This document shows, piece by piece, positions 738-43,027 of a stretch of 51,506 nt of DNA. This stretch comes from a virus, in IMG/VR virus record IMGVR_UViG_3300045988_081631; one strand, written 5' to 3'. Positions within the stretch are counted from its first letter, which is position 1. Every line of letters starts with the position of its first letter. Both the position numbers and the translations under genes were made by a program. Under the pieces are notes generated by a model that was given only the letters and a program-made list of their open reading frames with translations, had not been told where the DNA came from and made no database searches.

Positions 738-757
738 TATAGTATAGCTCGCTCCTT

Positions 758-1619: not shown

Positions 1620-1631
1620 GGTTTTGCCTCC

Positions 1632-1865: not shown

Positions 1866-1879
1866 ATGCTTTTCCTCCT

Positions 1880-3691: not shown

Positions 3692-3734
3692 CACGATCTC
3701 TCCCTCGTTTAACTCAAGTTCAAAGTAGCCCTCT

Positions 3735-3977
3735 TTAATCCGGGATGCACCTGTTCTCAAACTTCTTATAAGCGTCAAGATACCATTCCTTCTTGTCGCC
3801 GTTATAGGTCATCTCGTAATACATGCCGTCAAACAATGTGGATGACAGCAGATACTTCCAGTTCTGGAGCGCCTTGCACTTCCAGACCACAAACACATCA
3901 AACTCTGGCATCTTGTCGGACTTGTCCAAATGGTCAACAATATAGCTTCTTACAATCTCAATAACCTTGTTATCCAT
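3735..3977 (-). CDS. hypothetical protein (80 aa)
   Basis: ORF track; compact and co-oriented, with lower GC than its neighbours. Confidence 0.55.
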
Positions 3978-4037
3978 ATCTTGCTCCTTTTGCTTTCATG
4001 AAAGTTTGCCCCGCTCACACGGGCGGGGCGTTGTCGG

Positions 4038-4169
4038 TTATTCTTCCGCCAGCTCCGGCAGACCCGCGTCCACCAGCAACTCTTTGACCTTCGCCTTGAG
4101 CTTGGCCGGGACATCCTTAAACTCGGTCTTGCCAAGGATTACGCGCTGCGCAAAAAACATCGCCATCAT
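4038..4169 (-). CDS. small CD1375-like / XkdX-like tail-fibre-associated protein
   Basis: MMAMFFAQRVILGKTEFKDVPAKLKAKVKELLVDAGLPELAEE matches the pattern (..G..t..dVP..lr..V...L) of a small family that follows fibre genes in clostridial phages (recollection). Strong RBS GGGGGTGAAACG. Confidence 0.6.
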   Translation of the reverse strand: MMAMFFAQRVILGKTEFKDVPAKLKAKVKELLVDAGLPELAEE

Positions 4170-4218
4170 CGTTTCACCCCCTTTCCCCATGATTTTCAGC
4201 ATCGTCCAGATGACCAGA

Positions 4219-4605
4219 TCACGCATACACAATTCCTGCCATCTCGGCCATGCAGTCTTCTACAAAATCGTTTCGGTCGCTGAGCGCCTGAATCTGCGCT
4301 TTGAGGAGCGTGCGCTCCTTCTCTTCAGCTGTCGGTTCGGGCGCAGGCCGCGCGTCAAAGTCCGCATCCATCTCGGCCTGTGTCCGCTGCGCAACCAGCC
4401 CGTCCACGAGCTTGTAGCGGTACACGCCGCGCTCATCCGTGAGCGGCTTGAGCAGATAGTTGTTCTGCGCGTGCCGGTATCGGTCGCCCTCGCCCTCATC
4501 GATAGCCGTCCAGCCGCCGCCGCTCACAAACGCGTCGCTGTTGATCGCCGTCACGCGCCCAGCATCGTCGGTCTGCACCAGTACCTTGCAGCTCTCCGTG
4601 TCCAT
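4219..4605 (-). CDS. hypothetical fibre-associated protein (128 aa)
   Basis: ORF track; directly follows the first fibre gene. Confidence 0.55.
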   Translation of the reverse strand: MDTESCKVLVQTDDAGRVTAINSDAFVSGGGWTAIDEGEGDRYRHAQNNYLLKPLTDERGVYRYKLVDGLVAQRTQAEMDADFDARPAPEPTAEEKERTLLKAQIQALSDRNDFVEDCMAEMAGIVYA

Positions 4606-4617
4606 GTCACCCCTCCT

Positions 4618-6432
4618 TTACAGGTCGGCAGAAATGTCAATGTCGCCCTGCGGCGTAATCACGCCCGTGCATACGCCCGTCACGGAAACCGCGCACTTGA
4701 CAACGACGCGGTTTGCGTTTGCGTTATGCGCCGTAGCCGTCTCCGTCGTCGTTCCCTGCGCGCTGCCCAGCGTGTAGTAAAACTTCCCGCCGCCCGTTAC
4801 AGTTGGCGAAATCCGCATCGCCTGCAAGGGGATAAAAGCGTAAGCCACGCCGTTCGCGGCGTACCCGGCAAACGTTTCATCATTGGCCTTGATCTTGCGA
4901 TAGTATCTCAGGCACTCGGCCAGTTCCGCCGCGTATCCCTTCGGCACATACGGAGGCAGTGTCTCCGCCGTGTATTCGCCCTCGTAGAGCGCCGCCCAGC
5001 GGACGACCGCCGCTGTGCCGGTGCTACCTGTGTCCGGAGAAATGTACACGTTCACCACTTCGTCCCCGGTCAGGCCATCCGGTTTTATCAGTTTAGCTAC
5101 CAGCGTGCGCTCCGCCACGTCGCCCGTGAAATAGGCGGGTTCGCCAAAGTTCGTCGTGCCGTCGTTGATGTAGCCATACAGTCGGCACGCCACCGGGAAA
5201 ACGCCGCGCACCGCAAACGTCATCACGTCGGCAAACCGTTTCGCCTCGATCCGCTGCTGAATGCCCGCCGTCCAGCTCGTTTTGTCCGACACGATTTTCA
5301 GCCCGTCCGCCGCCTGTGAAACCGTCGCGCCGCTCGTCCGCATCCAGCGATCCACGGCATACCCGGTCGTGCCGTGCGCCCCGTTCACACCCGCCTGCGC
5401 AATCGGGTGAACGAAATCGCTGTTGTCCAGCAGGTTGTACATATGCACATCCTTATCCAATGCGCCCACATCCGCAGCCGTCAGCGTCACTTTGCCCGCA
5501 CCGTCCGGCGCTATCCCGTTGATTGTCAACCCGCCGAGACTTCCCGTGTCGCCGCGCGGGATAGTCAGCGTAATAACCGGGTTCTCCGCCGTGCCGCTTT
5601 GGGCGACGCTTGCTTGTGTGCCTGCCTCGCCAGTAACAACTTTGACCGTAATTTCCGGGGTTGCGCCCGTCGCGCCCGTGTTTCCCTTGTCTCCCTTTGG
5701 GATAGCAAAAGACAGATTATAATGGCCGTCCACAAGTGACAAGTCTGCCGTCGGCGCGGCACCCGCTTCGAGGCCGGATACCTGCACGGTCATGTTGTCG
5801 ATTTTTCCAGCAGCGGCATTTGCTGCTTTGGTTGCCGTGTTGGCGTTGGTTGTCGCCGTCTGCGTGGCCTTTGTCGCGCCGTTTGCGTTCGTGGCCGCCG
5901 TGCTCGCGGCCTTTGTTGCCGCGTTCGCATCGGTCGTCGCTGCTTGCGCGGCCTTGGTCGCGCTGTTTGCATTGGTTGCGGCCGTGTTCGCAGCCTTTGC
6001 CGCCGCTTCGGTCGCTGCGATTTGGGCAAGCAGCTCGTCGAGAGACGGAATCGTCTGACTTGGGTCAATGATTGCGTCGGTCTGACTGCGCGTGACGTAT
6101 CCGTTTCCCCAGAAAACCGCCTTTCGTTCGCTTCCGACAGTGACCTTGATGATAAGGTTAAACTGTCCGGCGACTGTATAGCAGCTTTCTGATAGCGTCA
6201 CTTTCGCAACACTTCCGCTCGCAGTTCCTTCGACGGGAACAGTGTAACCGTCGGCGCGAATGAAATAGCCGATAACGCCCGCTCCGTCGATTTCCAGCGG
6301 CTCTTTGTTGCGATAAAGCGAAAGCTCGAAAGTATACGCATTTTTGTCACCGGACGCGAAAAGCGTCCGAATCGGAGTCATGAGGATATCAGCATCTACG
6401 TCAACCCTGCGCGTAAATTCACCCGAAATCAT
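4618..6432 (-). CDS. tail fibre / baseplate upper protein-like, with an Ala/Thr/Asn repeat stalk
   Basis: The N-terminus has a BppU-N-like beta pattern. The stalk is TNANxATKAA repeats, followed by GDKGNTGATG and GDTG motifs. Start at ATG 6432 (AAGGAG plus 8 nt). Confidence 0.75.
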   Translation of the reverse strand: MISGEFTRRVDVDADILMTPIRTLFASGDKNAYTFELSLYRNKEPLEIDGAGVIGYFIRADGYTVPVEGTASGSVAKVTLSESCYTVAGQFNLIIKVTVGSERKAVFWGNGYVTRSQTDAIIDPSQTIPSLDELLAQIAATEAAAKAANTAATNANSATKAAQAATTDANAATKAASTAATNANGATKATQTATTNANTATKAANAAAGKIDNMTVQVSGLEAGAAPTADLSLVDGHYNLSFAIPKGDKGNTGATGATPEITVKVVTGEAGTQASVAQSGTAENPVITLTIPRGDTGSLGGLTINGIAPDGAGKVTLTAADVGALDKDVHMYNLLDNSDFVHPIAQAGVNGAHGTTGYAVDRWMRTSGATVSQAADGLKIVSDKTSWTAGIQQRIEAKRFADVMTFAVRGVFPVACRLYGYINDGTTNFGEPAYFTGDVAERTLVAKLIKPDGLTGDEVVNVYISPDTGSTGTAAVVRWAALYEGEYTAETLPPYVPKGYAAELAECLRYYRKIKANDETFAGYAANGVAYAFIPLQAMRISPTVTGGGKFYYTLGSAQGTTTETATAHNANANRVVVKCAVSVTGVCTGVITPQGDIDISADL

Positions 6433-6849: not shown

Positions 6850-9056
6850 TAATACCCCAAAAAGTTGATTGTTTCAAAGTCGCCCCAAACTCCACTGATT
6901 TCTTTGATTGTTATGGTCACGTCCGAAGGGCTTTTACAGTACCGATTGGTTGTGCTGTAATGGACACCAGTGCATACATCAATCGATTTCCACGATCCGT
7001 CATGCTCGCCGATATGAACATATCCATTTGTGACGACCAATTTTTCCGTGTAAAGCGACGTTGCTTTTACGCCACCTGTTTTTAAACCGTTTACTTCTGT
7101 AATCAGCGCGTCAAGATCAATTTTGTTTGCTTTCAGCGTGATTTTGCTGTTTGCACCGTCGATTGCAATTTCAGCGGCAGAAATTCGGTTTCCCTGCTCG
7201 TCTGTTACTTCCGCAACCTGCGTGATTTTGCTGTTTGCACCGTCGATTGCAATTTCAGCGCTGCTTACTCTCTTGCCGATATCGTCAACAGTTGTTTTTT
7301 CGGCTTTGAGATCAACTTTGGCGTTCAAGCCGTCGATGCTGACTTCTGCCGAAGAAATTCGCGTTCCCAGACCGTCGACAACCGTTGCATCCGCCTTGAG
7401 GTTGATTGCGGCGTTTGCGCCGTCGATGGCGATCTCGGCACTTGTCACGCGATTTCCAAGTTCATCTGTGCGGGAGGTCAAAAGCTGAATCTGCGCACCG
7501 TCTTCGTCGATAATCAACTCAGCTTGTGAAAGTCTGGTGTCTATATTATCCGTCTTTTGTCTTAACCCGCCCAATCCGCGAGAAAGCACATAATCGTTCT
7601 GTCCGCTTGTATATTCTTGACGCTCAAACTTGCTGACCGTATCACGCTTTTGCTCGCCGGAATTGGAAAGTGTTACTTTCGGAGAACCCTTCCACTCCAT
7701 ATCCATACTGTAAACAGGAACAGAATATGTTTCTCCTTCGGACGTTACATTTACAACGTCTCCTGCTTCTGTTGTCCAATCTGCGAAAAGCTCTGATGTT
7801 GACGGGTTAAACGGCTCGAATCCTGACAATCTGTCGTAGATTTTGTCATATGGAGTCGATGCGGCGCGCGCCCGCACTCTTGATTTTGTCCGTGCTTCAT
7901 CATCAACCCGCAGAAACGGGTTGTTTTGGAGAAGATACGCGTTACCGCCTTTTCCTACTGTTCTTTCCTCGGTCGAGTTAGAATTTCTGACGTATAGCTT
8001 ATCGACCTTCTCAACCTGATACGAATAAGGAGTAAAGTCAGAATAGTCGGTCTCGCCAAACGTTCTACCCGTTTGGTTGAACCACCGCATTTCCAGTTTT
8101 CCTTCCCGGTTGAATTTTGCATAACAGCATCCTGCTTGCGCAATCCAAGCAAGAATTTCTTGCAGTGTTGCTTCCTTGAAATCCTCCGGTTCTTCAGATA
8201 CGGAAATGGAACTGTTGATGAAATCCGTCTTCACCCATTCAACACCGAGAATGTTGCACATCTGCGAAACAAGGCCAGATAGCGTAGCTGGATAGCTGAA
8301 AGTCACATCCTTTGCCATCTTGTCAGCAAACAGCTGCATGTAATCGTTGGCTTCAAGGTCAACGATTCGTCGGCGTACAATGGTCGGACGCTGCGCGATG
8401 AACTCGCCCAGCTTCACATACTCGTATTTTTCCGTCCTTCCGTTTGAATACCATTCTGTGACATATTGACCGGCCTTTGCGATTCCTCTATATGCTGCTG
8501 CAAAACCAGCAGCCTTCTCTTTCATGAAACCGTTGCTGATATACTGCTCCGGATTCGCAAGGAAAGCACGTGGAGTTGTCGTCACATTAAAGGCTGCAAC
8601 CTTTCCGTCGTCCCCAAATAGGAATGCCCGTCCGTCGTCTATCACAATCGATTTAACAGGAAAATCAGGTTGAATCGAACACTCACTGCTGTTTTCCAGC
8701 AAATACGGTTTTGTAGCACGTGCATATAGGGTTGTTTGCCCGTATGTCGCTTGCACAACATAGGATGGGGGAAATGTACCTTCTTCGATTAACGCGCCTA
8801 TGGAAGCCGTAAAACGTCCAAATGCATATTCGTTGAGTATTCCGTTTCGATTGATCAATGCGACATTCAGACTGTTTTCGGGACAAGCACCCATCCGCAA
8901 TTCATCAGATTCGTTAAAGCGGTCATGAAATGTAATTCCTCCGGAAGTAATGCTGATATCATCGTTCGTGAAAACTGCATCCTCAAATCGAAGCATGGCT
9001 CTTTGCGTCTTTCCGGCTTTCACGGCATCCTTAAACGCTTGGCTCGCAACAATCAA
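6849..9056 (-). CDS. tail tip / prophage endopeptidase-tail (Tal-like) protein with four 28-aa repeats
   Basis: 735 aa in the position after Dit. Carries the repeat ..R(V/I)SSAEIAIDGANxKI... TTG start 9 nt after AAGGAG. Confidence 0.75.
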   Translation of the reverse strand: MIVASQAFKDAVKAGKTQRAMLRFEDAVFTNDDISITSGGITFHDRFNESDELRMGACPENSLNVALINRNGILNEYAFGRFTASIGALIEEGTFPPSYVVQATYGQTTLYARATKPYLLENSSECSIQPDFPVKSIVIDDGRAFLFGDDGKVAAFNVTTTPRAFLANPEQYISNGFMKEKAAGFAAAYRGIAKAGQYVTEWYSNGRTEKYEYVKLGEFIAQRPTIVRRRIVDLEANDYMQLFADKMAKDVTFSYPATLSGLVSQMCNILGVEWVKTDFINSSISVSEEPEDFKEATLQEILAWIAQAGCCYAKFNREGKLEMRWFNQTGRTFGETDYSDFTPYSYQVEKVDKLYVRNSNSTEERTVGKGGNAYLLQNNPFLRVDDEARTKSRVRARAASTPYDKIYDRLSGFEPFNPSTSELFADWTTEAGDVVNVTSEGETYSVPVYSMDMEWKGSPKVTLSNSGEQKRDTVSKFERQEYTSGQNDYVLSRGLGGLRQKTDNIDTRLSQAELIIDEDGAQIQLLTSRTDELGNRVTSAEIAIDGANAAINLKADATVVDGLGTRISSAEVSIDGLNAKVDLKAEKTTVDDIGKRVSSAEIAIDGANSKITQVAEVTDEQGNRISAAEIAIDGANSKITLKANKIDLDALITEVNGLKTGGVKATSLYTEKLVVTNGYVHIGEHDGSWKSIDVCTGVHYSTTNRYCKSPSDVTITIKEISGVWGDFETINFLGY

Positions 9057-9456: not shown

Positions 9457-12400
9457 TACCCCCTTACGCTCTCATACATCTTTACAGAGCGTGAAACAGT
9501 CTTTCCAAGCTCAGGGCTTGGCTTGACGACAACATTGTTTTCTTTGCGATTGAGCTGCTCAAGTAAAGAAATCATACGCTGATAATAGGTGTTCTGCTCA
9601 CGGTTTGCATCTGCGACGCCGCGCGCGATACCGTCAACTATCTGCCCGTTGTTAGCAACAGCAGACTGACTGCCAATCTGGCCAACAAGTTCAGGCCCTT
9701 GCTCATTTGCAATAAACAGGCTTCCTTCCGACGGAAAACCGCCATCTGCATATTTAAGAGCAGTCATTGATATGCCAATTTTTCCACCTCTCCGCGAAGT
9801 TCCACTCAAGTTAAGCAGATTAGTCATCGCAGTATTCCACTGACGGCCCATTGAAAGCGTGCTGTTCATTGCGTTTGTGATGTTCGACATATCCGGCGAA
9901 GCAGCAGTTATTTTCGTTGCTTCTGTCATATCGGGGTTCCACGTCGTTTCGACGTAAGACTTAGTTTCTTCAAGGCTTGGGTCGAATTCCGTTGCGGTAT
10001 CAATGGCAGGAAGCGTCAGATTGGCATCTTCTCCAACGAGAGAATCCTTAAATTCTTTCACACGCTGAACGATCGCATCCATGTCTGTACCAAAGGAAGT
10101 ATTGGTCAATTCCTCCAACGTGAACGCGCCGCCAAGCGCGGCTTGAATGACATCCTGAAGCTGTAAGCCGTAAGAAGCCTGTCCATACAAAACGCCTTGA
10201 TCCGTTGTTGCAATCGCACCCTTCATGAGTTGTTCGACCAATTTGAACTTTTGGAGATCTGTATCACTTACGCTTCCAGCATCTTCAATGGATTGAATAA
10301 ACGGAGAAATCGTATTGGACACATATTCCTGCATTCTCCTGTTTGCATCGTTTGCCGTCCATGCGCTATCAGGAATAAACTTATTTAACGCATCTGGAGA
10401 TAGGAATTGAGTGAACAGATTAGTCATAAGCGTGGACGTTTCAGAACTAAGATCGCCAACCTTTGCGTCGTAAGCCTGCGTAATACCATCTGTGACTTCA
10501 TCAATCAAAGAAACTGTTCTGTCGTATTCCGTCTTCGTCCAATCTCCACTGTTGTACCGCTCATAAGCAAGGTCTTTCAAATACTCCTGCGCTTCAATCT
10601 GCTCCTTGTAAGCTGTCTGATACGCTTCTTTGACTTCGGCAGACATGGAATTGATTTTTTCAACATATTCCTTTGCGCTAACCAATCCATCTTCGGAATT
10701 AAAGTCAACCGTAAATGGATTTTCCATCAGCTCAGACCATCTTCGTTCTTCCCGAACATTTATTGCGCTCTGTGCATGTTGGTTATACCAATCCATTTCC
10801 TCATTAGTTGCGCTACCTTTTGCAATCTTATTGATGATTTCATTCCGCTTTTGTGCTGTCTCCGCCTGATATTCGGTCATCCCCTGCTGCATAATCATGT
10901 ATTGTTTTTGAAACTCTTTTCCCTTTTCTTGCAGCGTCTCAATTTCGCTGTCAATCATGGTATTGATTCCTTCAAAGGACAGCGCAAAAGCATTGTCGGT
11001 AGTTCCTTTCAATGCCGTATCAAAATCAGACCATGCGTCCTTGAGTGCCTTAATATCCTCCGGCGTAGGAGCATCGCTACCAAACACAGTGGAATTGAGA
11101 TTCTTTACAGACTCGGTAGCAGTTTGCAAATCCTCTTTTGTCTTTGTAAAATCAGCATAAATGCCAAACGTCACTTGCGCCTCAGCCAATCTTGACGAAA
11201 ACTCCTTCTGAACGGCATTGATAACGCTGTCCATCGAAAAATCGCCATTTCCGGCTTCCTTCAACGCTTCTGCAACCATGTTTTCCGTCTTTTTTCTTGC
11301 GTAGAAATGAAGCGTAGCAATACCGACCGAGATTGCGACAATCGAACCGACGGTTAAAACAATCGGCCAGCTTGCGCCCATCGCCGCAGTAGCGAATCCA
11401 GCGCCAACACCAGCATTGATAGTTGAAATAACTGCACCAATGACATCCTCTTTGGTTATTCCATTCTTTCCCATTTTTTTAGCAAGAGCAAAAGCCACAG
11501 TTGCGCTTGTAATTGCTATATATGCACCAATTCCGAAACCGAGAGAAGATATGTTTTCCAACCCCATCAGTTTAGCCGCGGAACTGCCGATCATAGACAA
11601 TCCGGGGATTTCAAGAAACGCGCCTGCAACGGCTTTCAGCATGTTTTCCCACGTCCAGCCTTCACCATTAACAATTCCATTCACGGCATCCCATGTCAAA
11701 GAGATACCGACAATCGTAAGCGCTACACCTGCTGTAAGCTGGTGGATCGCCGCAAGCGCATCCTTAGACGCTCCAAGATATTCAGCGATTTTGGCAATTT
11801 TATTTCCAATGGCAAAAGCAGAAATCGCGCCAAGAAGCCCAAGAATTTCAGGCTTGAAGCTCTCGATCTTTTCAATGATATCGTTGACTTGTTCCTTAAT
11901 ACCTTTTAGAAAATCATAGGAATAATCGCCCAGTCCCCAAAGGTCTCCGAGCGCACCGCCGCCAGCTCCACCGCCACCGCCACCGGAACCCGCCTTGTCG
12001 CTTTCCTGCTGGATGATGTTGATTTCGTCCCAGCCTGCAAGTAGACCTTTTACCTCTTTTGCCGCATCCTTGGCTGCACTTCCCGCGCCGCCTAACGCTT
12101 GTTCCAAATCTGATGCTCCCCCGACCGCGCCTTTCAGATCTGTCTCCATCCCGCCGATGCTCGGTAAAGAGAACCCAAAGATAGACGCGATTGCCTGCGC
12201 CGCGCGGCCAATGACGACAACAACCGCCTGAAAGATTGGAATAAGCTTTGCGGCAATGACAGATACAATCTGTCCAATGTATCGCGTCGCAATCGCACAT
12301 TGGTTGTAAAAGATTCTCAAGCTGTTCGCCGGAGTAATGATTGTTCGTGCCAAATCACCCTGAATATTGCTGGTCTGCTCCATAATCTTGTTATAGCGCA

Positions 12401-20519: not shown

Positions 20520-20554
20520 AATCACACAAAACTGTGTCTACTTTTTGTGTGATT
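20520..20554. repeat. perfect 12-bp inverted repeat overlapping the terL stop
   Basis: aatcacacaaaa-11 nt-ttttgtgtgatt. Confidence 0.8.
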
Positions 20555-22184
20555 ACCACAGTCTATCCATTAGAAAGACCTTGACAGCCGTCGATTGATC
20601 CATTTCGATGGCCTGCGCCAAACTGTCCGGCGCATCGTCATTTTTGTTCTTGCCGATCATTTTGAATGAAAACACGTTTTGCATAAAAAGCTGATATTCC
20701 TTTGACCTCTTTCCTTCCGCAAGGAAAATCATTCTTTCCCGAATATCCGGAGCTTTGTCAAAAATGCGTTGTGCTTTTCCGCCGATTGTGATTGCAGTCG
20801 TCTTTGTCGTTAAGTTAATCCTCTTGTTCTGTGCTTTCAAAAGCTCTTCTACGCCCTCTGCATAAGCAATGGTTGTTTTATTCGCCTCAAACTGCAAAGC
20901 CGCCACATCGTTGTTTATGACACTTTCAGCGACAAGCTGCTGAGTTGTCCTCTTATCCCCGTTGTTGTAAACCACGGCAGGAACATAAATATCATTGCCA
21001 TACTTCACGCAAACAGGCCCGGCAACAAAGTCGCCTCCGCCCCACGCGGGATCAACCGCCATGAATATCCTGTCCGGCACACTGTCTGGCAACTCACCGT
21101 TGTAGTAACGGAAATCGTCAGGCTCAAACACTGCCCCGTCACGCTCAATCGGCGCACCCATGTACTGGGCAAACCACGAGGCCATATCATTATTCCGTTC
21201 AAACGACGCACGCCTCTGCTGGTAGACTTCGGTTGAGAATCCCACGCCGTAGAGATAGTCAAAGTTGCTTTCGTCGTTCTCATCCAGTGCAGGAAGATTG
21301 ATAATTCGATACCGATGATCCCTGAACTTCTCGCTGTTCATGATTGTGTCGATCCTTAATCCAATCGGATCAAGCAATGACCATCGCGTACCGCACCACA
21401 GAATCTTTGCATTTCCCTTCGCGCGGGACAGCATGTTGTTATCCACTTTGCCCCACGCAGAAATCAGGCGGTCTTTACTCATCGCTTCTTCAATGCCGCT
21501 CAACAGGTCGTCCGACATCAAAATGCCGTCAACGTCAACGCTGCCGTTCAGCGTTCCGTATAGCGAACGGCACGTCAGCGACGCATAGCGCTTGTTCCGG
21601 TCAATGTTCAGCGTTTCCATCTTGCTGTTTGTTGACGCGACCTCTTTCCCCGGAAATATCTCTTTCCACAGGTATGTTTTGGGGTCGTTCAGAATTTCCA
21701 TAACGCCATTATAGAACGCGTTTGTAATGTTGTCCGAATACGCGCAATACAGGTTAGAGCGCTCGCTATCCCGGCCAATCGCCCACGTCATGTAGAACAT
21801 GAGAATCGACGTTTTTCCAACGCGCGGCGGCATGGACAGGAACAGTTCGTCCAACCGATCATCCGCCAAATCCTGCAAAGCTTCAACAAGCGCGAGCAGT
21901 GTCTTTCTGCGCGGCAGGTAGAATTTCTCCTCCGGCTTTCTATTCCACTCCAGATACAGCAGATAGCTGTCAAAATCCTTTGGAGCCGCCCACTTATAGG
22001 TTTCCTTCACCAGCTCATACGCGGCCATATCGCCACGCACGGCCAGTCTTTCGGCATACTTCCGCGCTTCCTTGCACAAAGCCAAATCATCCGTATTTTG
22101 CGCCATACTGAACAGCATCGCCACATTATCCAGCTTCCCCATATCCGACGCTCTAAGCCGCTCTATGATCTCCTGATCTGTCAT
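20553..22184 (-). CDS. terL: terminase large subunit
   Basis: 543 aa. Walker A-like MPPRVGKTS, then an acidic motif, then the C-terminal nuclease region. Confidence 0.9.
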   Translation of the reverse strand: MTDQEIIERLRASDMGKLDNVAMLFSMAQNTDDLALCKEARKYAERLAVRGDMAAYELVKETYKWAAPKDFDSYLLYLEWNRKPEEKFYLPRRKTLLALVEALQDLADDRLDELFLSMPPRVGKTSILMFYMTWAIGRDSERSNLYCAYSDNITNAFYNGVMEILNDPKTYLWKEIFPGKEVASTNSKMETLNIDRNKRYASLTCRSLYGTLNGSVDVDGILMSDDLLSGIEEAMSKDRLISAWGKVDNNMLSRAKGNAKILWCGTRWSLLDPIGLRIDTIMNSEKFRDHRYRIINLPALDENDESNFDYLYGVGFSTEVYQQRRASFERNNDMASWFAQYMGAPIERDGAVFEPDDFRYYNGELPDSVPDRIFMAVDPAWGGGDFVAGPVCVKYGNDIYVPAVVYNNGDKRTTQQLVAESVINNDVAALQFEANKTTIAYAEGVEELLKAQNKRINLTTKTTAITIGGKAQRIFDKAPDIRERMIFLAEGKRSKEYQLFMQNVFSFKMIGKNKNDDAPDSLAQAIEMDQSTAVKVFLMDRLW

Positions 22185-22193
22185 ATTCCCTCC

Positions 22194-22224
22194 AAAACAA
22201 AAAGCCGCAGTTTCTCACTACGGC
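22194..22224 (-). terminator. intrinsic terminator ending a few nt upstream of the terL RBS
   Basis: Minus strand GCCGTAG-TGAGAAA-CTGCGGC TTTTTGTTTT GGAGGGAATATG. The stem has a G.U pair only in minus-strand RNA. Confidence 0.65.
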
Positions 22225-22242
22225 TCTACGGAAATATAAAGA

Positions 22243-22268
22243 GGGCCGCAGTCCAATGACTACGACCC
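22243..22268 (-). promoter_or_regulatory. upstream hairpin related in sequence to the terL terminator (possible attenuator partner)
   Basis: Minus strand GGGGTCGTAG-TCATTGGA-CTGCGGCCC. It shares CGTAG and CTGCGGC with the terminator arms. Confidence 0.45.
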
Positions 22269-22312
22269 CTATTAGTCGTCTACGAGCACCCTATTGCGCT
22301 GATTTGATTATA

Positions 22313-23164
22313 TCATTCCTGCTTTTCTTCGTCAACTTTCATCCGTGCTTCCTCGATCAGCGGTTTATGGTACTTTTCCTCCGCTTCTTCTCTGACAGCT
22401 ATTGCATCTGACAAACGGCTGTAAAGGCCAATGGTTTTCTTCTCCCCGTTTACGCCAATCGTCACGCCCCAGCCTTTCTTCCTGCTGTTCCAGAATACAC
22501 CCTTTCGCCCTGACTTATTATTCTTAGATGTTTTCCGCATCAGCTGGTACACGTTGGAGTGTTCCACATCGCCCAAATGCAGCCGCCTGTGCATCTCTTT
22601 CACTACGTCCGCATTTGCACACCCGCATGACACAGCGCGTCCACGTTTAAGGTCTGTTCCGCTTGCCAATCGTTCCTTTCCACAGTCGCAGACACAGCGG
22701 TACATCATGTTTCCCGCCTCGCCGCTATTGCACTGCTTAATATCTGTCCGTTCGACGACCGTCAACCGTCCAAACCGCTTGCCGATAAGTTCCTGTTCAA
22801 GCATCTTTCCTCTTCGCTTACAACCACAGGACACGCTTGCGCCACTCACCAGCTTTGCCGCCCGCACACTAACCTCTTTACCGCAATCGCATCTGCAAAC
22901 ATAGCTCACTGTCTTCTGCGTTTCATCCCTGTGTAAGACTGTCAGATACCCGAACCTCTTTCCCGTTAAATCCGGCAGTCTATTTTGACATCCGCAGGAC
23001 GTTGTATGCCCGCTTCGCAGATTTCCAAGCCTATATTCCTTCATGCTGCCGCACAGCAGGCATTTCGCCTCGCACATCGGGATTGTTCGAGGCGGCTTGC
23101 CCGGTCTAAGATACGGCGCACGCCACTCTCGGATTACCTCAAGATTGCCATAGCGTGTGCCCAT
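22313..23164 (-). CDS. Zn-ribbon-repeat protein with a C-terminal AP2-like DNA-binding domain
   Basis: Three modules G(K)RFGxLTV...C.CDCG....SCGC, then GVFWNSRKKGWGVTIGVNGEKKTIGLYSRLSDAIAVREEAE (AP2-like). Confidence 0.7.
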   Translation of the reverse strand: MGTRYGNLEVIREWRAPYLRPGKPPRTIPMCEAKCLLCGSMKEYRLGNLRSGHTTSCGCQNRLPDLTGKRFGYLTVLHRDETQKTVSYVCRCDCGKEVSVRAAKLVSGASVSCGCKRRGKMLEQELIGKRFGRLTVVERTDIKQCNSGEAGNMMYRCVCDCGKERLASGTDLKRGRAVSCGCANADVVKEMHRRLHLGDVEHSNVYQLMRKTSKNNKSGRKGVFWNSRKKGWGVTIGVNGEKKTIGLYSRLSDAIAVREEAEEKYHKPLIEEARMKVDEEKQE

Positions 23165-23610
23165 AGAATCACCCCTTTTTGTTCTTGCAGGTGCTCACGG
23201 GGTCTACCCCGCGCGTCAGCCGCTACCCCCTTATTACCCCCGCCGGGGTATCCCCGCGCGCGTGTCTCGGTGCGTGTGCCGCCTGTATGGGGCATATACG
23301 CCGCGCATCCTTCCCACGGCTGTTGATGTGGCCGCCGTGAACGTGTGCCCCGGTGGATGTGTCGCCATCTGTGCGCGCTGTCTGCATCATATCGGCAGGC
23401 CGTCAGCCGCTCCCGCTATCACCCGCAGGCAGACCGCCGACGGGAACACCTGCCGCGCATCATCTGCCGGGCGTGTCCACCGCGCCGCCGGACATCCGCG
23501 CGCCTCTTGTATCAGTCAAGCCCCGGCAGGCCGTGAAGCGCGCCGGGGCTGGTTGTCGTGTGTCTGGCGCTGTCATCCTCTGACAGCTGCCGCCGTCGTC
23601 CGCGATCTGC

Positions 23611-23871
23611 TCACGGCGTGGGCGCGTCGCCCTCGTGATCTTCGGCGCGCCCCTCTACGGGCTTGCCCGTCTTGGGGTCGTATCCGTCCGCGATCATGCA
23701 CCGCGCAATACACCGCCGCATCATTGTAGCGCGCGGAAGCCCAAGCGCCGCCGCGTATGCGTCGAGGGCTGCGCGGTCATCTGGCGAAAGCTGTATAGTG
23801 ATCTGCCGCGCCCCGCTTATCTCCCTGTATCGCGCATTAGCGGCCATCTGTGCGGCCTTATCGTATGCCAT
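23611..23871 (-). CDS. ribbon-helix-helix (CopG/Arc-like) DNA-binding protein
   Basis: 86 aa. ARQITIQLSPDDRAALDAYAAALGLPRATMMRRCI fits a beta-strand plus two helices. Confidence 0.6.
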   Translation of the reverse strand: MAYDKAAQMAANARYREISGARQITIQLSPDDRAALDAYAAALGLPRATMMRRCIARCMIADGYDPKTGKPVEGRAEDHEGDAPTP

Positions 23872-23888
23872 CGTATCACCTCCATATA

Positions 23889-23917
23889 ATAATAACGCAT
23901 GCGTTAAAAAAAGTCAA
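23889..23917 (-). promoter_or_regulatory. putative promoter of the RHH gene, with a 14-bp palindromic operator (23893..23906) in its spacer
   Basis: TTGACT-17-TATTAT on the minus strand. The palindrome is taacgcatgcgtta. The leader to the ATG would be very short. Confidence 0.5.
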
Positions 23918-23936
23918 TAATAATTCGCAAAAACTC

Positions 23937-23965
23937 TTGACAATCGCTAATAGTAGTGTTATAAT
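23937..23965 (+). promoter_or_regulatory. consensus sigma-A type promoter driving the GC-rich plus-strand island
   Basis: TTGACA (23937..23942), 17-nt spacer, TATAAT (23960..23965). Confidence 0.75.
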
Positions 23966-24117
23966 ATAGGTGTCAAGAGGAAAGAGGAAAGGCCGACGGG
24001 CGGCCGCCTCCCCGGTGCTATGAGTGAGACGCAACCGCGACACGACGAGCGCACAGGAGCCAGGGCACGAGCCGGGAAAAGCCCGAAATGAAGCCGAAAA
24101 GGCAAGGAGAGAAAACC

Positions 24118-24399
24118 ATGAATAAACTTAAGATGCGAGATGCTTTCAATCGTAACGCGTGGAAATACCTGACCGCCGCCGAGCGCCGCGCGCAACTCAA
24201 AGTTGAGCAGGCCAAGGAGTGCAGCGGCCTGCGCCGCTATCCCAGCACTTGCAGCGCCGTACTGGCCCGCATCCCTGCCGAGTGGTGGGGCAAGTACAAC
24301 GCCGAACACATCGGCGAGGTGATGCGGCTGCTGAAAGCCGCCTACGATGACGGACGGCAGCACCCAAGCCCTGACGAGTGGGAAAAAATCCGCTACTAA
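24118..24399 (+). CDS. hypothetical protein (93 aa), island gene 1
   Basis: AAGGAGAG RBS; GC-rich third codon positions. Confidence 0.6.
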   Translation: MNKLKMRDAFNRNAWKYLTAAERRAQLKVEQAKECSGLRRYPSTCSAVLARIPAEWWGKYNAEHIGEVMRLLKAAYDDGRQHPSPDEWEKIRY

Positions 24400-24509
24400 C
24401 TCCACCCGATGAGAGCCGGACGGCAACCGGCCGAAACGCCGCCCCACGTGGCGCGCGTCGTGGAAAGCCACAAAAAAGCCCCCAAGCGGGGGCGGGAGGT
24501 ATGAAGATT

Positions 24510-24872
24510 ATGAAAAAGTATATTATCAATCCGATTCCGGGCACTATGCGCGTCGATTTCGACAAATCCAGCGCAAAAGGCGAAAAAATCCGCGTCACCC
24601 TGTCCCGTGGCACTGACACCGGCGTGAAAGACAGTCTGCCCGCCCTGTGGGTAAAGCACGGTTTCACCGCGTCCCGGCTATCGGACTGGTGGAACGTCGA
24701 GGTTGTGGCGACTGCCCCGGACGGTACGGAACACCACCGCTACAACCCGCAGACGGCGCGGAATCGCAAAATAGATTTTGCGTGGATGCTCCCCGCGACC
24801 GAGGAGAACGCGCAGAAAATTTTTGACGAAATCGCCCGCCGCGCGGGTATTGTGTGGGAGGTTGCCGCATGA
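24510..24872 (+). CDS. hypothetical protein (120 aa), island gene 2
   Basis: GGGAGG is 10 nt before ATG 24510 (ATG 24501 is too close to the RBS). Confidence 0.6.
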   Translation: MKKYIINPIPGTMRVDFDKSSAKGEKIRVTLSRGTDTGVKDSLPALWVKHGFTASRLSDWWNVEVVATAPDGTEHHRYNPQTARNRKIDFAWMLPATEENAQKIFDEIARRAGIVWEVAA

Positions 24873-25144
24873 GCGAAACCATGTTAGCGGCAAACGTCGC
24901 CGCAATCGTCGCGATCCGCGCCCAAATTGAGGCGCTGAAAAACCAGCTTTGCCCGCTTGAGGATGCCGTCAAGATCGAGATGGCCGAGCGGAACGCCGAG
25001 GAGATCACCGCCGCCGGGCACGTTGTCCGCTGGAAGGTCGTAACCTCTAAGCGGCTCGACACCGCCGCGCTGAAAAAGGCGCTGCCGGAGATCGTCGAGC
25101 AGTACACCAAGGAGGCGCGCGCCTGCCGCTTTACGGTGGATTAA
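24869..25144 (+). CDS. hypothetical coiled-coil protein (91 aa), island gene 3
   Basis: ATGA overlap with gene 2; GGGAGG RBS. Confidence 0.6.
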   Translation: MSETMLAANVAAIVAIRAQIEALKNQLCPLEDAVKIEMAERNAEEITAAGHVVRWKVVTSKRLDTAALKKALPEIVEQYTKEARACRFTVD

Positions 25145-25253
25145 AAAACGGGTGTATGAGTATGGCGACTCATACACCCAAGCGCCGCCCCACTACGACA
25201 TAAGGCCGACGCGGTTATTATATCACCCGCGCGGCAGAAAGGCAAGGAAAGCA

Positions 25254-25517
25254 ATGAATAACTTTGAAAATTTTAATGGCTGCTGGGCTGTTTTTTGCGA
25301 ACTCGACGCGGAAGATTGCGACGACCGCCGCGCGCGCGTCTCGGTTGTGGGTGCTTTTGCCTACCCCTGCAACGCAGAGGACTTTATCCGGCTTTGCATC
25401 CCGGCGGAAAATCGCGACCGCTTCCGCATCTGCCGGGTTTCCGACCTGCCGCAGGTGCGGGAGGATATCGCCGCCGGTATGGGCGAGAGCCCCAAGGCAT
25501 ACAAGCCGATATTTTGA
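25254..25517 (+). CDS. hypothetical protein (87 aa), island gene 4
   Basis: RBS AAGGAAAG; start MNNFENFNGCW. Confidence 0.55.
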   Translation: MNNFENFNGCWAVFCELDAEDCDDRRARVSVVGAFAYPCNAEDFIRLCIPAENRDRFRICRVSDLPQVREDIAAGMGESPKAYKPIF

Positions 25518-25629
25518 CGAGCCGAAACAAGCCCCCCATGTGGGGGCTTGTCCGTCGGGAACAGCCGCCCGGCGCTGATGATGGCAGGCTAACACACTAC
25601 GACAGCCCAGACGGGCGGGAGGTTGCATC

Positions 25630-26712
25630 ATGTATCAAGAGACCAAAGCCGACACCCTGCGCATTTTGGCGCACGGACTCCGCGTCAACGGCGCAAAGAC
25701 GCTTGTGAAATGCTGGTACAGCATCGACGGCGACAAAACGCAAATCTATGCGCGCAGCTACTCCGACAAGCTCCCGCGCGACATCCTGCCCGTGCAGAAT
25801 GATACCGACATCATGACAGATTATTTTGACGAGGACAGCGCTACGCTTTCCGCCGAACATCCGCTCTATCCCTTCTTCCGCGCGGCGGCAATCCGGGAAA
25901 AGCTGGCATTTGCCAAAAAGCACCCGGCACATAACGCCACGATTGACAGCGCCCGCGCCGAAGAGGCCGCGCGCCTGTCCGCCGAGCTGGAGACGCTGCC
26001 GAGCGGTCAGCCCACCCCCGCAGACGTTGACCGCGCCCGCGCATACATGGACGCGCAGCGCAGAGCGGCGGCGGAAGCGGAAGAGCGCGCCCGCCGTGAA
26101 GAGTGGGAGCGCAGCGCAGAGGTGGAGCGGCAAAAAGAGCAGGACGCGCGCGAGACCATCGCCGCAGCTGTCGCGGCTTATCCGCTCAAGGACGGTGCGC
26201 CCTATGTCGTCATCAGATGGAGCGAGCACCCCGGCATTGATGAGGGCTTGGCGCTTTCCGTCGCCGCCGCTGATCTGGTGCTATCCCATCTTGACGAGGT
26301 GCAGCACGCGCGCCGCGTGAATGATGGGTTGCGTGGGTATGATAAGACGGCGTTTGTCGTCCACTACACCAAGGGCGGCGAGCCGCTGACCTTTGCCGAC
26401 CGCTACGACATCGGCGACGGTATCGGCGGACTGATCGAGGCTATCCGGCACTATGATAGCAATCTAGCCGAGATGCTGGAGGCATACGGCCCCGCCTTCA
26501 CCGCGCCCGCCGAGCAAGCGAGCACGGAAGCCGCCGGGCGTGTCCTGTCCTTTGCCGTCTGCAAGACCGCCCACGAGTATAAGCAGATGGACGCCGCCGC
26601 CGACAGTATAGCCGGGCTGCTGCTGGACATCCTCGGCGCTTCCGCGCCCCATCTGCCCACGCGACAGGCTACCCCGCAGCCATCCGGGCGCGTGCTTGCC
26701 TTCCACCGCTGA
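25630..26712 (+). CDS. hypothetical 360-aa protein, island gene 5. The C-terminal part resembles accessory domains seen on conjugative-element polyvalent proteins
   Basis: GGGAGG RBS. Central Arg/Glu/Ala coiled coil. C-terminal YVVIRWSEHPGIDEGLAL... The domain assignment is recollection only. Confidence 0.6.
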   Translation: MYQETKADTLRILAHGLRVNGAKTLVKCWYSIDGDKTQIYARSYSDKLPRDILPVQNDTDIMTDYFDEDSATLSAEHPLYPFFRAAAIREKLAFAKKHPAHNATIDSARAEEAARLSAELETLPSGQPTPADVDRARAYMDAQRRAAAEAEERARREEWERSAEVERQKEQDARETIAAAVAAYPLKDGAPYVVIRWSEHPGIDEGLALSVAAADLVLSHLDEVQHARRVNDGLRGYDKTAFVVHYTKGGEPLTFADRYDIGDGIGGLIEAIRHYDSNLAEMLEAYGPAFTAPAEQASTEAAGRVLSFAVCKTAHEYKQMDAAADSIAGLLLDILGASAPHLPTRQATPQPSGRVLAFHR

Positions 26713-26935
26713 CCCTTCCGCCTGCCTGTTTGCGGTGTTTCCCCTTGTCCGGGTTCCCTTCATCGGCATACCTGGCAGGGGTATTCTTTCCGTGGCGGTC
26801 TGCCAGCGGGCTACTTCCGCCAGAATACACGCACATTTCACGCGTAATATGGCAAGTTAGCGGGGCGATTCTACAAAATCCCGTTCAAAAGCACCCCCGT
26901 ACCTTTTTTGAGCGCGAAAAATTTGCTTCCAGATT

Positions 26936-26982
26936 TTTTCTGAAAATTTTGGTTTCGCAAAATTGGCTAGGGAATTTGAAAA
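26936..26982. repeat. about 47-nt imperfect direct repeat, copy 1 (partner 27770..27817)
   Basis: ttttctgaaaattttggtttcgcaaaattggctagggaatttgaaaa versus ttttcctgaaaattctgatttcgaaaaatggctggaggagtttgaaaa. Confidence 0.8.
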
Positions 26983-27304
26983 AAGTTTTTGATATTGTGC
27001 ATAACGCATCACACAAACGCATACGCTATAACCGCAGAGATCGAAACGCTCCCCAGCGCTCTTCTAAAGCCCTTTTTACCCTCTTTCCTTGTTTCTGTTC
27101 AAATCTGCGTACTTGTCACAATACGTTGTCAATCGGTATCAAAAAACGCGCCTTTATACCTTCCGTTCCCTTCTAAATCGACATAATTTTGTCACAGTTG
27201 CAGATATGAACCGATTCCGACACTTTCAGCCTTGAAAGTGTGCAAATCCCACGGGGAAAGTGTACAACTTTTTCCTCATTTCAAGCATAACATGGGGGTA
27301 TTCT

Positions 27305-27583
27305 ATGATGCAAAATTCATCCGAAATCCTGCTTCCGCTGTCCGTCTATCAAAACTGTGGGCGATTTGAACAATCAGATTTGAGCGCTCACGCCATGTAC
27401 TACATTGTTTTCGCCTATCACGAGGGCACCGGCGACCGCTTCCGCCTGTCCTATCTGGTTTCCCCTCTGTATGACGAGCTGGAGGAAGCCGTTAAAGCTG
27501 GGGAGATCACAGACCGAGAAGCACGTGCTCGTGTGATAGGCTCTATTCGCTGGGATATGCCGTCCAGCGTAGAGACAGACTAA
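27305..27583 (+). CDS. hypothetical protein (92 aa)
   Basis: In-frame ATG 27305 after GGGGGT. Bracketed by the 47-nt repeats and followed by a terminator. Confidence 0.5.
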   Translation: MMQNSSEILLPLSVYQNCGRFEQSDLSAHAMYYIVFAYHEGTGDRFRLSYLVSPLYDELEEAVKAGEITDREARARVIGSIRWDMPSSVETD

Positions 27584-27720
27584 AGGCCTTTCCAGCCTGC
27601 CTTTTTCCAACCCTTCAACCATACCGTCCAGCAGGCAGAAGCGCCCACAGACGGCGCAGAACCGCCGTAGAACAATTCCGGTTTCTGCAAGTTATCGCTT
27701 ATTTTCTCAAAAATATCAAG

Positions 27721-27758
27721 AAAAAATCGACCTCAGCTTTTTCAGAGGTCGATTTTTT
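27721..27758. terminator. bidirectional intrinsic terminator
   Basis: aaaaaa-tcgacctc-10 nt-gaggtcga-tttttt. Confidence 0.8.
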
Positions 27759-27769
27759 GATTCCTAAAA

Positions 27770-27817
27770 TTTTCCTGAAAATTCTGATTTCGAAAAATGG
27801 CTGGAGGAGTTTGAAAA
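27770..27817. repeat. about 47-nt imperfect direct repeat, copy 2, directly downstream of the terS stop
   Basis: See copy 1. Confidence 0.8.
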
Positions 27818-27821
27818 CTTA

Positions 27822-28439
27822 TCATTCAACTTGCACGTCGTCATCGTCGCCGCCAACACCGAGCTGCTTTACAATCTCCTCGCGGCTCATTGCCGGGTGC
27901 TCGCTTTCGGTGTTCGTGCCGATGTCAACTGTCTGCTTATTGACCAAGCCATAATAATTACATCCGCGAAAGATATACGGAATGGCCGGAATCTTGCCAG
28001 TTGTGACCAAAGTTGCGTCCAAAGTTGCAAGAATCTCTCTAGCCTTTTGGGCGATGTCCTGTGTAGTGAAACCTGATTCCGTGTCCTGAAATCCCTTCAC
28101 CGCCCCCGTAGACCACTGGTGCAGCGTTTTCCGCGAATATCCGCAGTATAGCCCAAGTCCTTCCCACGTCGGCGGGACTTCTTCGTCAATACAGTACCGA
28201 AAATAGTCGTCAATTCTTTCCATCAGTTCTTTGTTGGAGTTCACCTTCTTCATTCTCATGAACCCTGAAACCCTTTGAAGCACACCTGCCATGTAATGTC
28301 TATTCTCATCACTGCTCATGATGATTTTTTCTGCTTGACATTGAGGCGGAACATTTTTCATGCTTGTGAAAGGTTTTGTTTCTTTGTTTGGTTCCTTGAA
28401 CCAAACCTCTCTTTCTGCATCCTTCTTTGTTCTTGCCAT
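27822..28439 (-). CDS. terS: terminase small subunit
   Basis: 205 aa. ELMERIDDYFRYCIDEEVPPTWEGLGLYCGYSRKTLHQW is the typical terS HTH region; acidic tail. Confidence 0.75.
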   Translation of the reverse strand: MARTKKDAEREVWFKEPNKETKPFTSMKNVPPQCQAEKIIMSSDENRHYMAGVLQRVSGFMRMKKVNSNKELMERIDDYFRYCIDEEVPPTWEGLGLYCGYSRKTLHQWSTGAVKGFQDTESGFTTQDIAQKAREILATLDATLVTTGKIPAIPYIFRGCNYYGLVNKQTVDIGTNTESEHPAMSREEIVKQLGVGGDDDDVQVE

Positions 28440-28569
28440 TATTGCTCTCCTTTGCGTTTATTTGCCCTTCTAACTGGATTTGTAATGTTTGATGATAGTT
28501 TTTTCTAGATTCGTTTTTATTCGCGTCCTTCGGCCATTTACGCGCCATGTAGAAATCCGTGGAAAAACT

Positions 28570-28794
28570 CTATTCGCCTTCTTTCATCATGTCTTCCATT
28601 CTGCATCCCAGCCGTTCACAGATTCTCACCCACATCTGCACCTTTCCCGTTGAACCTTTCCCATTTTCCAGCTTCCACAGCGTATTTTTATGTACGCCAC
28701 ATACAATTGCCATCTGTTCCAGCGAATACCCGCTTTCTTTACGCAATCGGTGGAGGTTTTTTCCCATGATCTCCGCAATGTCACTCATAGGCAT
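28570..28794 (-). CDS. XRE-family helix-turn-helix regulator
   Basis: NLHRLRKESGYSLEQMAIVCGVHKNTLWKLENGK. Confidence 0.8.
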   Translation of the reverse strand: MPMSDIAEIMGKNLHRLRKESGYSLEQMAIVCGVHKNTLWKLENGKGSTGKVQMWVRICERLGCRMEDMMKEGE

Positions 28795-42504: not shown

Positions 42505-42580
42505 CATGTTTTTGCAAATTTATGTTGACTGTGTTGGAATTATTTTTAGAAACTGAATCTCTAGGAATACAAAAAACATG

Positions 42581-42609
42581 TTGACTGTGTTAGCATGTTG
42601 TGTTATAAT
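42581..42609 (+). promoter_or_regulatory. repressor gene promoter
   Basis: TTGACT-17-TATAAT; the ATG is 26 nt downstream. Confidence 0.8.
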
Positions 42610-42634
42610 GATTGCGTCAAAGAGAGGTGAAAAC

Positions 42635-43027
42635 ATGAAAGACAGGATTAAAGAAATCCGTAATTTATATGGAATGACACAGGCTGAATTTTCCGAAAAG
42701 CTAGGCGTTTCAAGGAATTATACAAGCCTTCTCGAATCCGGCGACCGCGTTCCTTCCGAACAGCTCGTTAAGTCGATTTGCCGTGAGTTTAACATCCGTT
42801 ATGACTGGTTGGTAAACGGCGAAGAACCGATGATGATTCCGCAAGACAAGTATGATGAGCTGATTCAGACGATTCTTCATAATAAGTCGGAGTTCATGCG
42901 GTCGGCAGTCATGACCATCTCCCGCATCCCCGGCGGTTGGGAAGCGCTTGAACAGGTCGTAACGCAGGTCTACGAGGATTGGCAGAAAGAGCTGAAAGCC
43001 CAAAACGAAAAAAAGCCGGACGAATAA
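42635..43027 (+). CDS. cI-like XRE-family repressor
   Basis: IKEIRNLYGMTQAEFSEKLGVSRNYTSLLESG; divergent from the early operon. Confidence 0.8.
   Translation: MKDRIKEIRNLYGMTQAEFSEKLGVSRNYTSLLESGDRVPSEQLVKSICREFNIRYDWLVNGEEPMMIPQDKYDELIQTILHNKSEFMRSAVMTISRIPGGWEALEQVVTQVYEDWQKELKAQNEKKPDE

Follow-up and report, generated by a model that had tools for sequence, protein, structure and literature searches.

Hammerhead ribozymes of prophages can occur in clusters, as in Clostridium scindens, in Azorhizobium and, with ardA, in Agrobacterium. They share one orientation and flank individual genes or small gene groups whose identities are not constant, ardA being one example, and it was proposed that they process a long transcript into gene-length mRNAs (PMC3088659). 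Genes associated with twister and hammerhead ribozymes were also the basis for finding the twister-sister, pistol, hatchet and RAGATH classes, and the reason for the association is undetermined (PMC6765202); reviews of 2019 and 2021 agree that its purpose is undetermined, and in the literature of 2019–2026 we found no paper resolving the role of ribozyme-associated clusters. Here we describe a five-gene island on the plus strand of a phage contig of 51,506 nucleotides (IMG/VR record IMGVR_UViG_3300045988_081631; the whole stretch is hereafter the window), which is inserted between the genes for the small (terS) and large (terL) terminase and carries two hammerheads.

We consider it likely that the island is a moron-like array of gene cassettes within this class of ribozyme-associated prophage clusters, and that its transcript is cut into three mRNAs. 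We place it in the class because its genes behave as exchangeable cassettes around conserved junction RNAs. The island is known in kind, and joins clusters described since 2011 and still unexplained. The two hammerheads, in spacers of about 110 nt, are its defining feature, and were overlooked by an earlier reading made without database searches (the sequence-only reading), which saw a horizontally acquired moron of no recognised function. What that reading observed is partly confirmed, and its interpretation is partly supported.

Layout of the island and its predicted transcripts

Independent gene calls on the source contig (51.5 kb, metagenomic; ENA ERZ27261248 k119_72086) concur with the five open reading frames (ORFs) of the sequence-only reading, and a Shine-Dalgarno-like sequence precedes each of them. 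The features of the unit are listed below; siblings are closely related phages, and loci from other contigs and genomes carry L numbers.

23937..23965, plus strand: sigma-70 promoter with extended -10 (TTGACA-17-TATAAT, 12 of 12 matches, TG extension)
23966..24117, plus strand: 5' untranslated region (5' UTR) of about 150 nt, 97–100% identical in siblings, even where gene 1 is replaced
24118..24399, plus strand: gene 1, 93 aa, exchangeable cassette with at least three versions among siblings
24401..24469, plus strand: type I hammerhead after gene 1, U4-to-C (U4C) variant; full-length match to Rfam Hammerhead_1 (RF00163), 16.6 bits
24478..24493, plus strand: GC hairpin just 5' of the ribosome-binding site of gene 2; an intrinsic terminator as read on the minus strand
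24510..24872, plus strand: gene 2, 120 aa, exchangeable cassette with at least three versions; a 57-aa ORF instead in L006
24869..25144, plus strand: gene 3, 91 aa, ATGA-coupled to gene 2; phrog_6244 and C-terminal part of phrog_434
25150..25179, plus strand: 12-bp hairpin after gene 3 (spacer fold z = -3.6); on the minus strand, a hairpin plus T6 terminator
25254..25517, plus strand: gene 4, 87 aa, acidic, 6 Cys; a present/absent cassette in comparison with siblings
25520..25593, plus strand: type II hammerhead; 50.5 bits with Rfam RF02276 (gathering score 37; E = 1.6e-07 over the window)
25630..26712, plus strand: gene 5, 360 aa; beta domain at the N-terminus, long helix, and LPD25 (Pfam PF18840, E = 7.6e-18) at the C-terminus
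27305..27583, plus strand: 92-aa ORF, the probable last gene of the unit; also present in the gene calls for the source contig
27727..27758, no strand: bidirectional intrinsic terminator at the boundary between island and terS (A6, 8-bp stem, T6)

The consensus promoter of the sequence-only reading thus stands, with all twelve hexamer positions matched and a TG extension. Both hexamers are kept in siblings L005 and L006, and the spacer between them diverges (88–90% conserved); the 5' UTR is better conserved than this spacer, and its fold is unexceptional (z = -1.4). Apart from the hairpin after gene 3, folding z-scores were unremarkable. As minus-strand terminators, this hairpin and the one before gene 2 may block antisense transcription from the late genes. 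The transcription unit probably runs on through the 92-aa ORF to the bidirectional terminator; the surroundings of this ORF are variable, with neighbouring insertions or deletions in L006 and L008.

Genes 2 and 3 overlap by ATGA, and all other junctions are spacers of 109–112 nt. The translational coupling that had been ascribed to the whole set thus holds for genes 2 and 3, and not for the remaining three of the four junctions, two of which hold the hammerheads. Each of the latter fits precisely into the interval from a stop codon to the following ribosome-binding site, the U4C type I element after gene 1 and a canonical type II element after gene 4. In the process that we propose, the island's own strong sigma-70 promoter, probably under the control of a divergent ribbon-helix-helix (RHH) protein, would drive a transcript of roughly 3.8 kb that would stop at the bidirectional terminator just ahead of terS. 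Cleavage would release three mRNAs, of about 0.49 kb (gene 1), 1.09 kb (genes 2-3-4) and about 2.2 kb (gene 5 and the 92-aa ORF). Upstream products would end in ribozyme hairpins with a 2',3'-cyclic phosphate, and downstream products would open with a 5'-hydroxyl and then a hairpin, so that no unit would depend on its neighbours for mRNA stability or translation. We infer this insulating role of the ribozymes, as well as the timing of operon expression.

The sequence-only reading had also called the island visibly GC-rich. When measured, it is indeed an outlier, with a GC content of 0.612 against 0.517 for the whole window (+2.3 standard deviations of 0.041, in the top 0.5% of windows of equal size). 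The GC-rich block is nonetheless larger than the island, spanning 23165-26860 and including the RHH gene and a non-coding tract of 446 nt, and GC values of 0.58–0.62 are also attained elsewhere in the phage, for example at about 650-6300. The island value of 0.61 is nearer to what we take to be the GC of the genera that contain gene 5 homologues than to that of the phage backbone. The other GC-rich part includes a 632-aa protein with collagen triple-helix repeats (1880-3778), probably a tail fibre.

As had been noted, the island shares its plus-strand orientation with a cI-like repressor (42578-43027) and the integrase (45735-47015). Its own promoter and terminator, its deviating GC, its insertion between terS and terL and its lysogeny-like orientation together are the reason why the moron-like reading holds.

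Two hammerheads and the cassettes exchanged around them

The type II hammerhead begins 3 nt past the stop codon of gene 4 and matches the RF02276 model end to end (1-66). Its core is intact in the Rfam alignment (CUGAUGA, CGAAAC and GUC), loops close both stem I and stem III, with stem II open, and it scores above the gathering value in the window and in all the siblings examined (L004, L005, L006, L145 and L161; 40–50 bits). The predicted cut lies between 25552 and 25553. Loop I (AGCC) can pair with the 3' tail (GGCU), a kind of pseudoknot described for type II hammerheads (PMC3088659).

The element after gene 1 has the complete anatomy of a type I hammerhead, with an open stem I (UCCAC/GUGGA), the core CCGAUGA, stem II, GAAA, a stem III of 8 bp and GUC; a GCC at 24467-24469 pairs with loop II in a pseudoknot. 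C3 is position 24406, and C4 at 24407 is the sole departure from the core, whose other invariant nucleotides (G5, A6, N7, G8, A9, G12, A13, A14, A15.1-U16.1 and H17, besides C3) are present. We file it as a hammerhead variant, rather than a canonical one, because U4 is replaced by C, and it is probably an attenuated form. The cut is predicted between 24459 and 24460. An alternative partner for the 3' strand of stem I is a downstream CCAC or CCGC, and these pairings covary; such a switch would fold the new 5' end into a hairpin after cleavage. The U4C variant shows considerably reduced activity in vitro, yet supports viroid infectivity in vivo (PMC3088659). The same core substitution is cited there for a single viroid isolate, unlike here, where it characterizes a whole sub-family in DNA phages of gut bacteria with at least 23 independent stem III sequences.

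A search of viral contigs, with a pattern that left position 4 and loop II free and fixed stem II, retrieved 26 distinct copies, 16 with CUGAUGA and 10 with CCGAUGA, and all but one (25/26) are complete hammerheads. From 20 family members, RNAalifold recovered all three stems unguided. With a supplied structure that includes the pseudoknot of loop II with the 3' tail (3 bp), the same 20 members had 98.2% of their cells paired, compared with 83.5% in shuffles, and not one of 500 shuffles attained 98.2%; the alignment contains 46 double-change cells, and covariation was 0.408, compared with 0.117 in shuffles and no more than 0.07 after the 3' partners had been shifted by 1–3 columns. Double changes occur in four of the five pairs of stem I, none of which is broken, and stem III also shows compensatory changes. 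Scanning metagenomes for the C4 form yielded 28 further distinct copies, all of them complete hammerheads, with 23 different stem III sequences and with pseudoknots that covary across copies (GGU/ACC, GAC/GUC, AGC/GCU). The U4C type I sub-family is widespread in gut phages, below the Rfam threshold, which is an incremental novelty.

Siblings are 86–96% identical in gene 5, and yet they differ by replacements of whole coding sequences, insertions and deletions, around a 5' UTR, two ribozymes and a post-gene 3 hairpin that are 94–100% identical. L006, L004 and L139 have an unrelated 76-aa ORF in place of gene 1, and L161 and L144 have a third variant there; in L005 an additional ORF of 149 aa separates genes 1 and 2. 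Likewise, gene 4 is missing from L004, L006, L139, L145 and L161. In the first four, the type II hammerhead directly follows the gene 3 spacer, and in L161 about 67 nt unmatched to the window lie between them. The versions assort independently; for instance, L145 combines gene 1 of the window with a different gene 2 and lacks gene 4. This cassette-precise turnover at ribozyme junctions is a further incremental novelty.

Arrays in other genomes and competing explanations

The placement of these type I ribozymes is stereotyped. In the 35 copies with a credible upstream ORF (distances were taken from ORFs with a Shine-Dalgarno sequence and an ATG), the median distance from the end of the stop codon to C3 is 6 nt, with a gap of 5–8 nt in 25 of them, and in six the UGA within the ribozyme core itself serves as the stop codon; downstream, the median distance from the cut to a start codon with a Shine-Dalgarno sequence before it is 37 nt. 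From this spacing we conclude that the ribozyme is a compact gene separator. U4C copies also share their strand with ribozymes of other classes: pistol (L072, L078, L159), twister-sister (L076, L078, L154, L159), RAGATH-5 (L133, L149, L154) and type II hammerhead (L074, L142). One such array, at L154:3900-9030 (Ga0079226_10006240), holds three twister-sister and four RAGATH-5 hits and a U4C type I hammerhead on one strand of about 5 kb, with units of 0.4–1.7 kb between ribozymes.

The island genes have relatives in such settings. An alignment-based scan of reference genomes found gene 5 relatives where a single-protein scan found none, and tblastn with gene 5 matched only one unannotated record. 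Among the distant homologues in Oscillospiraceae, Ruminococcaceae, Dysosmobacter and Gemmiger genomes, a same-strand ribozyme lies upstream in 5 of the 11 loci scanned: a twister-sister about 90–260 nt from the gene in L109 and L112, a RAGATH-5 directly upstream in L108, and a pistol about 310–320 nt upstream of the match in L104 and L106. In Gemmiger formicilis the order is a gene 2 homologue (47% identity), a twister-sister and a gene 5-like gene. At L112:270-3465 three successive genes each stand behind a ribozyme (type II hammerhead, type II hammerhead and twister-sister), the last of them encoding an LPD25 protein of 680 aa. A gene 3 homologue (L077) and an FtsK-like ATPase are found in hammerhead arrays L077 and L079. 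In addition, a family of proteins of about 58 aa ending in ...YGL..EFRENGI recurs at L035:4991-5170, L015:2440-2616 and L032:3303-3545; it comes after a pistol ribozyme in L035 and directly upstream of a gene 5-like gene in L015.

The locus is close to the clustered prophage hammerheads (PMC3088659) in having two co-oriented, plus-strand hammerheads that bracket genes 2-4 in a phage. It is unlike them in that one hammerhead is a U4C type I, in its terS-terL site and in the cassette-precise swaps among siblings. The pattern recalls that of genes found next to twister and hammerhead ribozymes (PMC6765202), in that ribozymes of different classes take each other's place in a conserved context: the gene 5/LPD25 family stands behind twister-sister, pistol, RAGATH-5 and type II hammerhead ribozymes, and gene 2 before a twister-sister, which ties the LPD25 and gene 2 families to four ribozyme classes. 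At the level of pattern the island also resembles phage morons, with its own promoter and terminator, an atypical composition, an insertion between genes that are adjacent in relatives and an orientation opposite to the late genes. Classical morons, however, consist of one or two genes without RNA processing elements, unlike this multi-gene island with internal ribozymes and cassette turnover. With integron arrays it shares one upstream promoter, promoterless exchangeable ORFs and conserved structured junctions. It differs from them in that there is no adjacent IntI and no attC, the only integrase being that of the phage, 19 kb away; its junctions are ribozymes acting on RNA, or hairpins, and exchange is presumably by homologous recombination. 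Finally, in synthetic insulators such as RiboJ a self-cleaving ribozyme and a hairpin strip the upstream RNA and make downstream translation independent of context; the island ribozymes, unlike RiboJ, are natural, and would insulate by analogy.

A bolder version of our proposal, which we offer tentatively, is that the ribozyme junctions are portable boundaries of a plug-and-play expression array, a ribozyme-delimited analogue of integrons for conflict genes. Stop codon, ribozyme, hairpin and ribosome-binding site would together form a unit with two functions: it would provide the homology at which phages swap whole genes, and it would insulate at the RNA level, so that a new gene would be expressed regardless of its neighbours. 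At chosen junctions, the attenuated U4C core would keep processing partial. Were this so, it would account for the interchangeability of structurally unrelated ribozyme classes within the same genomic contexts. The locus is a small, well-bounded natural test case, with one promoter, two ribozymes (canonical and U4C) and five or six genes, and the siblings supply natural cassette swaps and deletions around unchanged junctions.

Several observations weigh against a ribozyme-processed cassette array. With 16.6 bits, the type I element stays below the Rfam gathering score of 34, and, because the U4C change lowers activity in vitro (PMC3088659), it may cut slowly or not at all; as for stem II, its conservation in the family was fixed by the search pattern and is, therefore, no sign of selection. 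Both ribozymes were identified from sequence alone, and we infer that they cleave in vivo. An Rfam search of 22000-28600 at E ≤ 10 retrieved nothing in the 5' UTR, the gene 3/4 spacer, the 446-nt tract or the 3' region; with no recognisable ribozyme at the gene 3/4 junction or in the 5' UTR, not every cassette is ribozyme-delimited. Beyond the window, no ribozyme accompanies the distant gene 5 homologues in L010-L015, and most other islands in terS-terL gaps contain none detectable with Rfam. Nor did the proteins offer support: the structural models of genes 5 and 2 had no Foldseek match below E = 0.07 in PDB or BFVD, and PADLOC and NCBIfam gave no functional hint for the island proteins. The U4C change with its sub-threshold score, the junctions without ribozymes and the many related islands that lack them would suit an ordinary acquired moron whose hammerhead-like sequences are decaying relics or hitch-hikers without a role in expression. 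We nevertheless judge this improbable, since the type II core is perfect and above the gathering score in every sibling examined, the placement relative to stop codon and ribosome-binding site is stereotyped, and the U4C copies keep three stems and the pseudoknot over 23 unrelated stem III sequences, which is not expected of decay. Even less probable is that the ribozymes serve to excise the 1093-nt RNA of genes 2-4 (24460-25552), with an RtcB-type ligase circularising this segment or joining its flanks. Paired ribozymes do leave 5'-hydroxyl and 2',3'-cyclic-phosphate ends, the substrates of RtcB, and Perreault et al. raised the possibility for clustered hammerheads, but the same authors failed to detect such products (PMC3088659); no sequence feature brings the two ends together here, and ribozyme numbers and classes vary in arrays elsewhere.

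Two other explanations concern the genes rather than the RNA. The terS-terL block might be a mobile element in its own right (a satellite, or else an integrative mobilisable element) that parasitises the phage from within its packaging operon: its GC differs from that of the phage, terS and terL are split into different transcription units, and the same gap in relatives repeatedly holds islands of 3.6–6.5 kb with serine recombinases and FtsK/SpoIIIE-type ATPases. However, the island of the window has no recombinase, integrase, relaxase, replication or FtsK-like gene, and an empty-site sibling was not found. The sole inverted repeat that flanks it (17 nt, 23422-23438/26794-26810) was rejected as element ends, being at chance level (8% of shuffles match it) and without covariation, since the changes in L006 are not compensatory; overall this origin is unlikely. 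It seems to us very unlikely that the prophage expresses the island as a module for defence or as a toxin-antitoxin (abortive infection) system in which the RHH protein would be the antitoxin. RHH proteins are common antitoxins, the one here has a weak VapB-like NCBIfam match (E = 0.0066), a ParE toxin pair flanks the distant gene 5 homologues of L011-L013 and the island is oriented like the lysogeny genes. Against this, what follows the RHH gene is a non-coding tract of 446 nt that contains neither a toxin ORF nor a remnant, cassette content varies as it would not in a fixed system, and the defence module offered by the sequence-only reading found no backing in PADLOC-DB 2.0, with no credible match and only two to DrmD (E = 0.03–0.05, 10–12 bits) that we took as noise. 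A ribozyme-associated cassette array thus remains our preferred explanation.

Island proteins, regulator and terminase context

Searches of Pfam, PHROGs, NCBIfam and PADLOC with all island proteins retrieved only LPD25 in gene 5 and uninformative PHROGs for gene 3, and homologue searches with genes 2 and 3 only a handful of unnamed proteins. For gene 5 the sequence-only reading had anticipated a charged coiled coil and a C-terminal domain reminiscent of conjugative elements, which fits the 54-residue helix (130-183) of the AlphaFold2 model (predicted local distance difference test, pLDDT, 76) and the LPD25 match; its proposed Foldseek check of this model and of that of gene 2 (pLDDT 85) brought out nothing. 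Although LPD25 is present, gene 5 does not look like a polyvalent protein, being a stand-alone product of 360 aa with one recognisable domain (homologues have 313–680 aa). Considering the context of LPD25 and the precedent of ardA, conflict between phage and host or between elements is the most likely field of action of the island proteins; that they serve counter-defence or establishment, by analogy with the link of LPD25 to polyvalent proteins of phages and conjugative elements and with the ardA example, is possible but doubtful.

The flanks of the island hold the following features.

20553..22184, minus strand: large terminase gene terL, left flank (tblastn to annotated large terminases)
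22313..23164, minus strand: HNH/AP2-like endonuclease gene adjoining terL, within the terS-terL block (phrog_374 'HNH endonuclease', E = 1.4e-44)
23165-23610, no strand: tract of 446 nt, 67% GC (0.673), between the RHH gene and the HNH-like gene, with no credible ORF
23611..23871, minus strand: RHH (CopG-like) gene, divergent from the island (RHH_1, E = 0.0018, and DUF6290, E = 0.0026, both below Pfam cut-offs)
27822..28439, minus strand: small terminase gene terS, right flank (GP3_package, E = 3.9e-09; phrog_606)

A minus-strand promoter-like site at 23917-23889 is divergent from the island promoter, and between the two lies a perfect 12-nt palindrome, AACGCATGCGTT, at 23893-23904. It is a probable scenario that the RHH protein regulates the island and divergent promoters, and AACGCATGCGTT is a candidate operator for it, as judged from its sequence. 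The 446-nt tract is 97% conserved in sibling L006, and tblastn with the recombinases and ParE of related loci detected no gene remnant in it. The 283-aa product of the neighbouring HNH/AP2-like gene has repeated Cys-rich motifs and an AP2-like C-terminus, and a Pfam search with it gave no match. A strong promoter-like site, TTGACG-17-TATAAT, lies at 22335-22307, upstream of terL.

Terminase, portal and integrase genes are all present in this phage, a temperate gut phage whose host is probably an Oscillospiraceae/Ruminococcaceae-type bacterium. Its TerL is at most 41% identical to that of any deposited phage (tblastn), and megablast of the island against GenBank phages found no match. We mapped the terS-terL gap in 55 loci encoding relatives of this TerL. 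The two genes abut in L023, L033, L034, L042 and L066, and lie 3.6–6.5 kb apart in many others, where the gap is filled with opposite-strand operons and a divergent helix-turn-helix (HTH) gene, often together with small serine recombinases and an FtsK/SpoIIIE-type ATPase. In the window, terS and terL belong to separate transcription units because the island and the bidirectional terminator intervene. In L035, a phage of this TerL lineage, the gap is occupied by an opposite-strand operon with two pistol ribozymes. That such arrays recurrently land at the terS-terL junction is again an incremental novelty.

The gaps of L026, L032, L044, L046, L054 and L063 contain an FtsK/SpoIIIE-type ATPase, small unknown proteins, a divergent HTH gene and one or two small serine recombinases, which looks like a recurrent module, possibly mobile or invertible. 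In L039 the gap holds two tRNA genes, and an int-alpA RNA lies just past the portal gene (7758-8216, 12176-12241).

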